Below, one piece after another: positions 17,413 through 21,325 of a stretch of 21,325 nt of DNA. Source of the DNA: Promethearchaeota archaeon (GTDB lineage Archaea > Asgardarchaeota > Lokiarchaeia > Sigyniarchaeales > SOKP01); NCBI GenBank assembly GCA_048940645.1, contig JBHLOI010000058.1, positions 1-21,325 on the forward strand, read 5' to 3'. Position numbers and translations under genes: made by a program. The notes under the pieces were generated by a model. That model did no database searches and was not told where the DNA came from. It worked only from the letters and a program-made list of their open reading frames with translations. Position 1 is the stretch's first letter, and the number at the start of each line of letters is the position of its first letter.

Positions 17413-18483
17413 TTATCTAAGCTGAGCACCACAATGTGGGCAATATATTAGATTTTCTTCTCTATCTATCTTTTCACCACAATATCTGCAATAACTTGGG
17501 TTTTGATCTGTTTCTTCATTCGGTTTTCTTGAAACATATTTTTCTAATTTTTTGAGGCTTTCTTCTAACTCTATAATACTATTTAACATATCTGGATTAC
17601 TTTCCTCACTTTGCAATTTTACATATTCAGAAGATAATAAGTGGGATTCCATCAATTTGTCGGTTATTTTCCTCAATCTTTCGATCGCATTATTTAAAAT
17701 TCTCTTTCCGTAATCTAATCTTTGACGCTCTAATTGTATGAGCTTTTTTTCAATTTCTATTTTATGGATTCTTTTCTCTAATTTTCTAGTGTATGATAAT
17801 AATTCTTCTATAATTTCTCTATTTCTATTAAAATTTTTTCTATGGTCAATACTATTATTATATGATAAAATATTTCCCCATTCATCTAATTTTGCAATCC
17901 AATTATTAATTTTAAATCTAGTATCTTCGGTAATTCTAACGATTTCGTTTGGAGGTGTTGTTTTTTCAACAACTAATCTCATTAGTCCTGATTTATTATC
18001 AATTTTTGGTGATTTTCTGAATATTTTTACAATCTGATTAATTGGATTACTGGGATCGCTGATTTGAAAACCCTTCGCTAAAATGTCAATCACATCTCCT
18101 TTGACTACAGGTTTATCAATTAATATTAATTTAAGTACTTTGGAAAGGGTTATTAGATCTATATAAGTAAAAGTTGGAGTAAACTCAATTTCTTCAGCAG
18201 TAATTACAACTGTCTTTCTTATTTTAACAATTTCCCCAACTTTCACACCTGCATTCAATCGGAGAAGATCGTCTAATCTTATTATATTTGTCCCTTTATC
18301 TCCGATACTAGGCATAACTATTCCAGCTGTCCTCTTTTTACCTGTAATCTCAATAATACTTCCTGTTGATAAAAATAATCTGTCTACAACATATTGATCT
18401 ATATAACATAATGAGTGTCCAGCAGAATTATTTTGTAAAGCCTCAACCCTTAACCCACCACCCTCAAATCTCTGCCTTATCAA
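17413..18483 (-). CDS. Chimeric protein: Cdc48/p97/VAT N-domain (no AAA ATPase) + PAN-like coiled coil + C-terminal Zn ribbon
   Basis: aa 11-192 match the CDC48_N/CDC48_2 pattern (GSIIEITGKKRT, IIRLDDLLRLNAGVKVGEIVKI, PVVKGDVI, VVEKTTP, VRITEDT). No Walker A/B motifs. Coiled coil at aa 227-272; CRYC...CPHC at aa 332-351. Confidence 0.8.
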   Translation of the reverse strand: MIRQRFEGGGLRVEALQNNSAGHSLCYIDQYVVDRLFLSTGSIIEITGKKRTAGIVMPSIGDKGTNIIRLDDLLRLNAGVKVGEIVKIRKTVVITAEEIEFTPTFTYIDLITLSKVLKLILIDKPVVKGDVIDILAKGFQISDPSNPINQIVKIFRKSPKIDNKSGLMRLVVEKTTPPNEIVRITEDTRFKINNWIAKLDEWGNILSYNNSIDHRKNFNRNREIIEELLSYTRKLEKRIHKIEIEKKLIQLERQRLDYGKRILNNAIERLRKITDKLMESHLLSSEYVKLQSEESNPDMLNSIIELEESLKKLEKYVSRKPNEETDQNPSYCRYCGEKIDREENLIYCPHCGAQLR

Positions 18484-18680
18484 TATAAATCAAACTTTTT
18501 GATTTCAATGTATGATGCACTGTATATTATCTGTATACTAAGTATTTAAAGTTTTGCTAATTAAGGTATGAATATATTGTTAGTAACCTTAAATTTATAT
18601 ATGATGATATACAATCAATATACAGAAGCAGATAAAAAAATTAAATATTATAAAATTGTAACATTGGGAGATTGATATAA
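18484..18680. promoter_or_regulatory. Bidirectional archaeal promoter region with mirrored direct-repeat boxes
   Basis: Minus strand: TTTAAATA (18550-18543) then TATACA-GATAA-TATACAG (18537-18520). Plus strand: TTTATATA (18594-18601) then TATACA-ATCAA-TATACAG (18608-18625). Also an inverted repeat AAATCAAA-CTT-TTTGATTT (18487-18505) and a GGGAG RBS-like site (18666-18670). Confidence 0.55.
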
Positions 18681-21325
18681 ATATCAATAGAAGTATTTGA
18701 GCCATTAAGTTCTCAACTTGGTATACCTGGGACTTCTTATAGGATTCAACTGGGATTAATTAATGGAAAATGGGCATCAAGACTCTTGAAAGGACAAAAT
18801 GTCATCGATTCATACATTTATAAGGATGAAGATATAGCAGAGGGGGGATTTCCTAATCAAAATATCATTGTAGGCTGGGTATTGCGTACTGTAGCCATTC
18901 CAAACATAAACCCACATCAAATAATGAAAACAACTCAGGCTTTAATGAAACAAGCAATCGAAAAGAAAGAACAAAAAAAGGTAATGGTTCCCGTAAAAGA
19001 AACTAAAAAGGTTGAATTAGAAAAAGTACCTGAAAGTTCTAGAGAATTACCATCTGAAATTAAAGTTGAACACATAGGAAATAATAATCGTGAAGATAAT
19101 TTATTAATAAAATTATTAAAAGAAAAAGATGAAGAGTTTGAACAATTAAAACTTGAATATGAACTATTAAATCAAGAATTAAGATCAGGTAAACCATCAT
19201 TTGAAATTCAATCAGAAGGTAATCTGGGTAACAAAGAACGGATATTGAATCTCCTTAAATCAAAATATCTAACCAGCAATGAAATTGCTGAAAGACTTAG
19301 TTTAAGTAAACAAGATACTCGCACTTATCTTCAAAGACTTAAAGCAGAAGACAAAATCAAGGTTATTGATAAAAAGGGGCGATTTTTAGTTTATGCCTTA
19401 AAGAAACCTATTAGTTCAGCAAAAGAACACTATGCGCCCGAATCCTTAGAATATGATTTAAGTTATTTACTCAATCTGATAGAGATGAAAATGACTCCTA
19501 AGGATGGTGTGAAATTCACTCCAATTGATCTCATGCATATCAAAAAAATCGAAAAACGAATTGCAGATAAAAAATGGGAAAACAAGCAAGAAATAAAAGC
19601 CCTAAGAGAATTAATCGACTTTGAAAAGACCTATAAAGAAGAAATAGATGAAAAGTTGGCTGAACTGGAAGCAAGAGTTAATTATATTGCATCTGGAGTA
19701 GAATTAAAACAAAAAGTAATAGAACAAAAAGAAGAAGAGGGATTCAGGGCAGCCAAAAATCAAGTATCCACTGAAGCGATTTATAAGGTTATAGTAATCG
19801 GTGACCCTGCTGTGGGAAAAACAGAACTTCTTAAAAAGTTTGCGACTAGAGCATTTGAGGAAAGGTATCTTCCTACTGTTGGTGTTAATATTTTGAAAGA
19901 ATCTATTAATTTAGATGATTTGAATGCCACAGTAAATTTAATGTTCTGGGATGTGCCAGGGCAACCTCAATTTTATATGCTCTATCGACCGTATTTTAAT
20001 GGAGCAGATGGTATGATCTTAACTTTCGATATAACTCGTTCAAGTACGTTTAGCAATATTAACAATTGGTATTCGACTGCTATAAAATACGGATTAAGCG
20101 GAATTCCTAGAATCTTAGTTGGAATTAAAAAGGAGTTAAACTCAGAAGAGCAACGCAAAATAATTTTACCCATGGCTGAGCATTTAAGTGAAAAACTCAA
20201 TGCGCCATATTTTGAAGTGTCTCTTGATACTGGAGAAAATGTTGAGCTCATTTTTCAAACTATTGCAGAATTAGTTCATAGATATAAAAATGGCGAAAAT
20301 TGGAACGTTCATGGCATTGAACAAAAAATAGCAGCAGTTCCAGAAACCCCTTCTATAAAGTCACCTGAACCTAAACCCGCTTCCGTGATATCTGAAAAAA
20401 TTCCAATCGCCTTAAAAGAAAGTCCAATTTTTCCATCATCATTCCAATCATCTCACATATCAAGTAGTCAATCCTTCGTCAATTATATGCCACAAACTAT
20501 TTCATCAAAGAAATTAGATGAATTACGATGTCAATATTGTGGTTATATTATTTTAAAACCTTATCCTAAAGATCAACTCTGCCCTAAATGTAGGAAATTT
20601 CTTCCTGAGTTATATAAATATGTAAATAATTCAGAAGTAGAAGGAAAAAAGGAGCCCAAACAGTTTAAGACTAAAACTTCAACTCTTAGTTCAAAATTTC
20701 AAGGAAAAATTAAAGTTAAAACAAAAGCAGAATCATTTTCAGTTGAAGATGAGATTATTTATTTAAAAAATGAAGAGGAATACGTTAAATTTTTAGGTAT
20801 CACCTCTGTAGAAAGAACTCCGTTATTTAATAATAATCATCGATATAAATATCTTTTAGAATTGACAAATAACTTAGATTACATTGCAACAAGTATTCTG
20901 GGTGGAGAATTAGATAAAATGCTTCTTATTACCGATAAAAACATCGAAGAAAAGTGTCATTTCTATGTTAAGGATGAAATCATATATATTGTATATGGAG
21001 TCTTTCCTGATAAAAAAGGTAAATGGATGCTTGAGCAAATGGCAAACTATTATTCTGAATTAGTTCGTGGTAAGGATGTAAATAATTTATCTAAACTTGA
21101 AAAAAGTAATATTAACCATAAATTCATAGGGCTTCTTAAGTTCATGTTAAATGAGTATCTAGGTTTACAAGAAGTATTTACAGATCAAGAGATTCCTTAC
21201 CTTGAAGATTGGATTAGAGTTGATTATGTAGGATTATCTTCAATGTCAATAGGGGTAATATCACTCCTTTTAGATGAAGAAGGAAATCTAAATGTGGAGG
21301 TGACTGGAGAATTTGATAATCACGC
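18681..21325 (+). CDS. Giant multidomain protein (>880 aa, runs off the window): unknown N-domain - coil - winged HTH - coil - Rab-like small GTPase - Pro/Ser linker - Zn ribbon - longin-like domain(s)
   Basis: Not in the ORF track because there is no stop in the window. Manual translation is open from 18681 (after TAA 18678-18680) to the end. wHTH about 19230-19400 (KERILNLLKSKYLTSNEIAERLSLSKQDTRTYLQRLKAEDKIKV...GRFLVY); GTPase about 19782-20280 (YKVIVIGDPAVGKT, YLPTVGV, WDVPGQ); CQYC...CPKC at 20529-20591; longin-like about 20781-21160. Confidence 0.88.
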   Translation, partial: MSIEVFEPLSSQLGIPGTSYRIQLGLINGKWASRLLKGQNVIDSYIYKDEDIAEGGFPNQNIIVGWVLRTVAIPNINPHQIMKTTQALMKQAIEKKEQKKVMVPVKETKKVELEKVPESSRELPSEIKVEHIGNNNREDNLLIKLLKEKDEEFEQLKLEYELLNQELRSGKPSFEIQSEGNLGNKERILNLLKSKYLTSNEIAERLSLSKQDTRTYLQRLKAEDKIKVIDKKGRFLVYALKKPISSAKEHYAPESLEYDLSYLLNLIEMKMTPKDGVKFTPIDLMHIKKIEKRIADKKWENKQEIKALRELIDFEKTYKEEIDEKLAELEARVNYIASGVELKQKVIEQKEEEGFRAAKNQVSTEAIYKVIVIGDPAVGKTELLKKFATRAFEERYLPTVGVNILKESINLDDLNATVNLMFWDVPGQPQFYMLYRPYFNGADGMILTFDITRSSTFSNINNWYSTAIKYGLSGIPRILVGIKKELNSEEQRKIILPMAEHLSEKLNAPYFEVSLDTGENVELIFQTIAELVHRYKNGENWNVHGIEQKIAAVPETPSIKSPEPKPASVISEKIPIALKESPIFPSSFQSSHISSSQSFVNYMPQTISSKKLDELRCQYCGYIILKPYPKDQLCPKCRKFLPELYKYVNNSEVEGKKEPKQFKTKTSTLSSKFQGKIKVKTKAESFSVEDEIIYLKNEEEYVKFLGITSVERTPLFNNNHRYKYLLELTNNLDYIATSILGGELDKMLLITDKNIEEKCHFYVKDEIIYIVYGVFPDKKGKWMLEQMANYYSELVRGKDVNNLSKLEKSNINHKFIGLLKFMLNEYLGLQEVFTDQEIPYLEDWIRVDYVGLSSMSIGVISLLLDEEGNLNVEVTGEFDNH

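Follow-up and report, generated by a model that had tools for sequence, protein, structure and literature searches.

A motorless Lokiarchaeal protein joining a Cdc48-type N domain to a PAN1-type coiled coil, next to a likely Ras-like GTPase partner

Archaea are believed to degrade proteins with the help of few adaptors, their unfoldases recognising clients with their own N-terminal tips. What would such tips do once separated from the motors, and how would they come to be joined to each other? The question is raised by one gene in the 21,325-nucleotide stretch of DNA analysed here (the window), which is contig JBHLOI010000058.1, positions 1 to 21,325, of a Promethearchaeota archaeon (assembly GCA_048940645.1). 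The original prediction, made from the letters alone, had placed an open reading frame (ORF) of 356 residues at 17413-18483 on the minus strand, and this frame exists; we refer to it and its product as the chimera. Comparison with its relatives and with proteins of the host identifies the chimera as a conserved, selected, lineage-specific, domain-shuffled protein without a motor. The start position of the ORF is the same in the relatives included in the family alignment, and the window has a guanine-plus-cytosine (GC) content of ~28%. The gene and its parts are as follows.

17413-18483, minus strand: whole chimera gene, 356 residues; TTG start, stop codon at 17413-15
18175-18465, minus strand: residues 7-103, double-psi beta-barrel subdomain of the Cdc48-type N domain (Pfam, PDB sequence matches, structure model, Foldseek)
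17854-18144, minus strand: residues 114-210, beta-clam subdomain of the N domain (Pfam CDC48_2, structure model)
17986-18075, minus strand: residues 137-166, insertion loop of ~30 residues within the beta-clam (alignment; modelled as disordered)
17803-17871, minus strand: residues 205-227, vestige of the N-terminal leader of the AAA D1 domain (ungapped Cdc48 alignments, family consensus, substitution rates)
17638-17802, minus strand: residues 228-282, PAN1-derived coiled coil including the hinge remnant ESHLLS (BLASTP, profile search, heptads, model)
17533-17595, minus strand: residues 297-317, second amphipathic helix (model, conserved residues, heptad pattern)
17416-17496, minus strand: residues 330-356, C-terminal C4 zinc ribbon, YCRYCG...CPHCG (invariant Cys, sub-threshold Pfam matches)

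Type II AAA unfoldases bind substrates and cofactors through the Cdc48-type N domain. A full copy of this domain had been predicted, and both of its subdomains were recovered above the Pfam gathering scores, CDC48_N at residues 11-91 (E 2.9e-17, 63 bits) and CDC48_2 at residues 117-192 (E 1e-6, 28.8 bits). The PDB sequences matched by the chimera were VAT-N and designed double-psi barrels. In the AlphaFold2 (AF2) model, built from an 18-sequence alignment and with a mean predicted local distance difference test (pLDDT) score of 71, the barrel formed by residues 7-103 was well folded (pLDDT ~90), and the N part superposed on p97-N and VAT-N (Foldseek E ~1e-11, template-modelling score by target 0.70-0.78). 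No match to UFD1 (PF03152) was found in the chimera at E up to 0.1.

The host assembly (3.83 Mb in 126 contigs, 90% complete) encodes three full Cdc48 proteins (748, 780 and 762 residues) and two PAN proteins (402 and 404 residues). The 762-residue paralog, on contig C22, aligned with residues 11-231 of the chimera at 48% identity with zero gaps; the alignment runs through the insertion loop and enters the D1 leader, where GNILSYNNSIDHRKNFNRNREIIEELLSY of the chimera stands opposite the leader of the C22 Cdc48. This vestige aligned with VTYDDVGGL...IREMVELPL of Cdc48, and the single-AAA ATPase P0041 gave the same picture (46% identity, ungapped), in agreement with the proposal that residues 205-226 are a decayed D1 leader. 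The family consensus at this position, IVSYEDP...RKVIEDLL, is nearer to the Cdc48 leader than the chimera of the window. The ungapped alignments to the C22 Cdc48 and to P0041 also indicate that the insertion loop is common to the chimera family and the C22-type ATPases. The loop was modelled as disordered, with pLDDT <50, and it carries a conserved SDPxxPxNxI motif in which D143, P144 and N149 are invariant in the family alignment; we consider it a candidate short binding motif. In a maximum-likelihood tree of 84 N domains, a clade supported at 99% unites the chimera family (Shimodaira-Hasegawa-like approximate likelihood ratio test, 93) with the C22-type ATPases, among which are real single-AAA genes of 471-485 residues. 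The other two Cdc48 paralogs of the host fell outside it. From this tree, of the kind that the original prediction had proposed, it follows that the chimera family arose once, from the C22-type Cdc48 lineage. We conclude from the alignments and the tree that the first ~227 residues derive from a C22-type Cdc48 paralog and comprise the N domain and ~22 residues of decayed D1 leader.

From residue 227, the chimera tracks PAN1 instead, with EELLSYTRKLEKRIHKIEIEKKLIQLERQRLD opposite EYLITYTRHLEKRLRNLETEKQLLDAERIRLE. BLASTP with composition adjustment aligned the coil with host PAN1 at 42% identity over 65 residues (E 1e-9), the homologous region of PAN1 being residues 17-69, and host PAN2 was not significant in the same comparison. 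We also searched a profile hidden Markov model (HMM) of the family coil, with filters off, against 13,972 stop-to-stop ORFs of at least 50 residues from all six frames of the chimera's own genome, a set that includes the many other coiled-coil proteins encoded there. The matches were the chimera itself (2e-33), PAN1 (9.6e-11) and PAN2 (0.0038), and the next best stood at 0.03. The PAN-like coil that had been proposed for residues 227-272 (17805-17668) is thus borne out, as is its preference for PAN over generic coiled coils. The 40.7-bit score of the coil profile against PAN1 would correspond, by arithmetic, to E ~4e-5 if scaled to 5.8 billion sequences.

The resemblance extends to details of the coil. 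Its eight heptads have an unbroken Leu/Ile stripe every seven residues, and both this stripe and an odd second core row, Y-R-E-E, are common to the chimera coil and PAN1. After a seven-residue insertion, equal to one extra heptad, ESHLLS (ESPLLS in the family) aligns with EPPLVS of PAN1, the hinge before the OB domain, so the coil does end where the original prediction had put its end. The AF2 model showed residues 218-282 as a single unbroken helix of 65 residues. Compared with PAN and Rpt proteins, the chimera shares the N-terminal coil, the heptad stripe, the odd core residues and the hinge end (EPPL in PAN1, ESPL in the family), whereas the OB ring, the AAA domain and the HbYX tail are absent and one heptad is extra.

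When the C-terminal half of the chimera was searched against 301 genomes of the phylum (sampled species representatives), the best match in ~200 other genomes was that of residues 224-272 to the N-terminus of an ORF of 400-425 residues. All 16 loci of such PAN-length ORFs that we fetched were end-to-end PAN1 orthologues (E <=1e-171). Against PDB sequences, the coil profile matched no PAN, Rpt or generic coiled coil and gave a single chance match at E 1.5; since the solved PAN coils of other archaea were not matched, the donor would be Lokiarchaeal PAN1 and not PAN in general. A word-indexed database search with residues 222-292, a method that needs shared five-residue words, returned only family members. 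These comparisons lead us to conclude that residues 228-282 were taken from PAN1 and correspond to its N-terminal coiled coil as far as the hinge preceding the OB domain. By the two sets of alignments, the junction is a break ~22 residues into D1, at which the PAN1 coil was joined.

No motor follows. In the AF2 model, residue 227 is followed by two helices and a small ribbon only. Pfam searches returned no AAA-family match at E up to 0.1 and no OB-fold (Prot_ATP_ID_OB) match in the chimera, and neither domain was found in any same-length family member by family search and alignment. The protein ends in ...HCGAQLR without an HbYX motif, and the other family members likewise end in zinc-ribbon sequence; the absence of Walker motifs and of HbYX had been read correctly. 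In archaeal Cdc48, the C-terminal HbYX motif docks on the 20S proteasome, and Cdc48 and PAN act as parallel proteasomal ATPases, according to PMC3493965. Relative to Cdc48, VAT and p97, the chimera therefore shares both N subdomains, the double-psi barrel and the beta-clam, and lacks the D1/D2 ATPase rings and the HbYX tail, a 22-residue piece of decayed D1 leader being left. The proposal that the recognition tips of Cdc48 and PAN had been joined without a motor is supported by these tests, and both donor types are present in the same genome.

The second helix, the zinc ribbon and the GTPase link described below were not part of the original prediction. In the second helix, L306, L310, L313 and E314 are conserved in the family alignment. 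The two CxxC knuckles of the ribbon (C332, C335, C348 and C351), whose spacing agrees with the ~10-13 residues of zinc-ribbon domains, are invariant in 18/18 sequences; because the zinc-ribbon Pfam matches at residues 330-356 (PF13240-like, 16-18 bits) are below the gathering score, the assignment rests on the motif and the model. Compared with the ESM Atlas, the C-terminal half resembled generic long-helix folds only. We considered a third donor for the C-terminus and rejected it: the stand-alone ORFs of ~160 residues match the zinc-ribbon motif only and are membrane proteins.

A word-indexed protein search found ~25 clusters that match the chimera in length and architecture and are 42-82% identical; every one of them comes from Lokiarchaeota/Promethearchaeia metagenomes. 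Full-length relatives were present in 3 of the 301 genomes, namely the chimera's own, G141 (81%) and G113 (42%). The coil LERQRLDYGKRILNNAIERL is nearly invariant across the family alignment, and ratios of nonsynonymous to synonymous substitution (dN/dS, Nei-Gojobori) show the same contrast. Against distant members, the ratio was 0.26-0.28 for the whole gene, ~0.13 for the coil and 0.7-1.2 for the leader vestige; against the two closest relatives, it was 0.6-0.67 for the whole gene, ~0.75 for the N domain and 0.11-0.17 for the coil. Across comparisons, the coil stayed at 0.11-0.17 and the leader vestige at 0.7-1.9, from which we conclude that the coil is the most constrained part of the protein and the vestige, now a fast-evolving linker, the least. 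A search for longer proteins (>623 residues) with the junction and the coil found none, which counts as weak evidence. The chimera gene abuts a convergent DUF123 gene, with no AAA remnant.

Several other proteins with Cdc48-type N domains were observed. The host encodes a second ATPase-less one, of 565 residues (contig C41:8746-10458, plus strand; also L005:1462-3159), in which an N domain of the same type without the insertion loop is followed by ~350 residues without a Pfam family and by a C-terminal zinc ribbon; 409 bp upstream of its gene is an ORF for a Ras-like GTPase. P0049 (667 residues), P0048 (466 residues) and P0053 (347 residues) contain two or three tandem Cdc48-type barrels and were scored for N-domain repeats only. 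At L040:2955-3203 (plus strand), an ORF of 82 residues whose only match is CDC48_N adjoins a reverse-transcriptase gene of >1000 residues and is followed, after 3 kb, by a single-AAA Cdc48-type gene.

The chimera has a divergently transcribed neighbour.

18484-18785, no strand: AT-rich divergent intergenic region common to the chimera and the neighbour gene (sequence read)
18786-21323, plus strand: divergent neighbour gene, >846 residues, cut by the contig end

Both promoters presumably lie in the intergenic region 18484-18785. By Pfam, the neighbour protein has a module of coiled coil and winged helix-turn-helix (wHTH) at residues 82-314, a Ras-like GTPase at residues 334-497, a zinc ribbon and a C-terminal region. 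In four family members of 546-563 residues, a Ras-family GTPase is inserted in frame directly behind the first N-domain strand, and the GTPase fused in one of them, P0018, is 76% identical to that of the neighbour. In P0045 and P0047, which lack coil and ribbon, a GTPase of the same type precedes an N domain that belongs to the ATPase-side branch; the GTPase fusion therefore arose more than once. On the syntenic contig of a close relative (L012), the wHTH module of the divergent neighbour is 79% identical. L038, from the 50%-identity clade, also has a divergent gene upstream of the chimera that starts with this wHTH module (61%) before the contig ends. Within the genus, the module was found only in the two genomes with close copies of the chimera. 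Both genes of the pair also evolve quickly, with dN/dS of 0.67 (chimera) and 0.52 (neighbour), several times the 0.05-0.16 of the syntenic flanking genes. On this pattern of fusion and neighbourhood, drawn from a small number of gene contexts, several of them in near relatives, the wHTH/Ras-like GTPase neighbour is likely a functional partner of the chimera.

Some observations on these genes stand apart from that argument. In P0059 (317 residues, a single cluster), the GTPase runs straight into the rear half of the coil, after which come the second helix and the zinc ribbon. The arrangement looks as if an in-frame deletion had removed the N domain and the first half of the coil from a GTPase-fused member; it could also be an assembly artefact. 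The GTPases of L012:5835-7610 (minus strand) and window 18786-21323 (plus strand) are 29% identical and occupy opposite ends of their proteins, which amounts to a domain swap among close relatives. In the GTPase domain of the neighbour (window 19758-20300, plus strand), GIKKE replaces GNKxD (G4) and EVSLD replaces ETSAL (G5), which agrees with a separate earlier note on a possible pseudoGTPase. Most of the fused GTPase orthologues keep G4 and G5 and have lost the Asp of WDxxGQ (WNIAGQ, WIIAGQ, WSIAGQ), so that each GTPase lineage seems to carry a different broken motif. In the 50%-identity clade, a 443-residue TIR-LRR gene lies directly downstream of the chimera (L014:2817-4148, L035:1888-3219 and L038:2510-3841). 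In G141, the chimera and the wHTH module each lie at the end of a very short contig (C322 and C197), and the assembly seems to be interrupted within or close to the intergenic region that they share. We also considered a general link between N domains and GTPases, suggested by the host C22 Cdc48 gene lying 1.4 kb from a GTPase, and dropped it in view of two C22-type loci of other genomes described below.

Multidomain small GTPases are known from Asgard archaea, where Rab/Rag-like domains are fused to longin, roadblock and other domains (PMC10933270; bioRxiv 10.1101/2020.10.19.343400), and both the GTPase-fused relatives of the chimera and its wHTH-GTPase neighbour fit this shuffling pattern. 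The main texts of these two papers do not mention Cdc48 N domains as GTPase partners. Asgard gene-content papers report wide domain shuffling, again without mention of Cdc48 N domains in their main texts, and a survey of ESCRT described a VAT-N-like domain on a haloarchaeal Vps4-like ATPase, a case different from the chimera.

What could such a protein do? We favour, at slightly better than even chances, an ATP-independent, coiled-coil dimeric, bivalent adaptor or regulator that works with the wHTH-GTPase neighbour. In the solved structures of the PAN N-terminal region, the coils are parallel and two-stranded, and the chimera coil may dimerise in the same way. If it does, a rod of ~9 nm would result, with a pair of Cdc48-type N domains at one end and a pair of zinc ribbons at the other, which would make the dimer a bivalent binder that needs no ATP. 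The N domains would bind ligands recognised by the C22-type N domain, and these ligands would be tethered or sequestered without ATP, not unfolded. The chimera would act together with, or under the control of, the divergent wHTH/Ras-like GTPase protein. A precedent for an adaptor role is Ufd1, a cofactor of Cdc48 in eukaryotes; its N-terminal UT3 domain adopts the Cdc48-N fold. Ufd1 likewise is ATPase-less and uses a Cdc48-N-type fold as a binding module; it has neither the PAN coil nor the zinc ribbon, and the N domain of the chimera is a recent offshoot of Lokiarchaeal Cdc48, not an Ufd1 orthologue.

A number of points weigh against this interpretation. We infer the dimerisation, the ligands and the GTPase contact alike, and the weight of the adaptor or regulator reading lies mostly in the general idea, not in any specific ligand. 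The N-domain dN/dS of ~0.75 against close relatives could mean relaxed constraint instead of a maintained binding site; nevertheless, while Nei-Gojobori (NG86) estimates are rough in a genome of 28% GC, the contrasts within the gene and between neighbouring genes are still informative. The PAN hinge proline has been lost in the chimera's own subclade (ESHLLS), and the family is dispensable, being found in only 3 of the 301 sampled genomes. As for the partnership, L014 has a small zinc-ribbon gene upstream of the chimera in place of the wHTH/GTPase gene, G113 carries a family member and gave no wHTH-module match at E 1e-5, and around two loci of C22-type ATPases in other genomes, no GTPase lies within 6 kb.

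The alternative that survives best, although we regard it as unlikely, is that the chimera docks on PAN: its coil would pair with a PAN1 subunit and either bring N-domain clients to PAN-20S or poison PAN assembly or substrate capture. A coil that is specifically PAN1-like, neither PAN2-like nor generic, that shares the heptad core pattern of PAN1 and that is the most constrained segment of the gene (dN/dS 0.11-0.17) would fit a need for compatibility with PAN1. However, every one of the six helices in the solved structures of the PAN N domain already has its partner inside the hexamer, and what sets the pairing is the OB ring, which the chimera lacks. PAN1 and PAN2 lie on other contigs, with no genomic link between the chimera and the pan genes; the family occurs in 3 of 301 genomes in which PAN1 is nearly universal; and nothing speaks specifically for the pairing or for inhibition. 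The genomic evidence points to the wHTH/GTPase partnership instead.

Next in probability, and rather unlikely in our judgement, comes a role in a variable conflict or signalling (defence-like) module, with the chimera as sensor or scaffold together with the GTPase, the wHTH protein and, in another clade, the TIR-LRR protein. Such a role would suit the patchy distribution (3/301 genomes), the several-fold faster evolution of both genes of the pair than of their flanks, the domain swapping in the neighbour, whose wHTH module is conserved while its GTPase differs in kind and in position, the assembly breaks at the chimera locus in G141, and the TIR-LRR gene that immediately follows the chimera in three contigs of the 50%-identity clade. 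The last of these counts as one observation, however, the three contexts being near-identical relatives. PADLOC gave no significant match for either the chimera or the TIR-LRR protein, the flanks in the window are ordinary beta-oxidation genes in conserved synteny, and there are no mobile-element genes nearby.

We find it improbable, too, that the chimera is a competitive decoy for the C22-type Cdc48, a free N domain that soaks up cofactors or substrates and thereby down-regulates the ATPase, with coil and ribbon serving stability or localisation. The C22-type ATPase clade is the closest to its N domain, which retains the signature insertion loop with SDPxxPxNxI, and the motor domain is absent, all of which would suit a decoy. 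Yet this N domain is only 48% identical to that of the host paralog and evolves fast relative to close relatives, the strongest constraint falls on the coil rather than on the N domain, and the recurrent GTPase fusions would go unexplained.

A bolder variant combines the elements above: the chimera might be a GTPase-controlled, ATP-independent selector, in which the nucleotide state of the Ras-like GTPase decides whether clients are handed over to PAN-20S through coil exchange with PAN1. We give it a slim chance. Least credible, and already contradicted, is a decaying cdc48 remnant or a gene-call artefact without function: the visibly decayed D1 leader and the dN/dS of 0.6-0.67 against the two closest relatives would suit it, but a same-length open frame in ~25 clusters down to 42% identity, dN/dS of 0.26-0.28 at larger distance and 0.11-0.17 in the coil, invariant zinc ligands and the lack of any AAA remnant before the convergent DUF123 gene speak for a conserved family under purifying selection, which excludes the recent frameshifted cdc48 remnant that the original prediction had named as its alternative.

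In the literature searched, mostly outside subscription journals, we found no description of the chimera family, which is built wholly of known domains. The case is unusually clean for the study of domain shuffling, because the donors, the junction and the descendants are all visible in living genomes: the tips of two motors have been cut out and spliced together with no motor attached, selection has maintained the product, and fusion to a Ras-like GTPase has occurred repeatedly, all in the archaeal group closest to eukaryotes. If the adaptor or regulator reading is right and the chimera binds clients or cofactors of the Cdc48 type, it would show in a simple, traceable way how free-standing adaptors such as Ufd1 can arise from the machines themselves, and it would link small-GTPase signalling to proteostasis in Asgard archaea. 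Were the selector reading to hold, the family would provide an Asgard precedent for eukaryote-style, switch-regulated delivery adaptors built from the motors' own heads.

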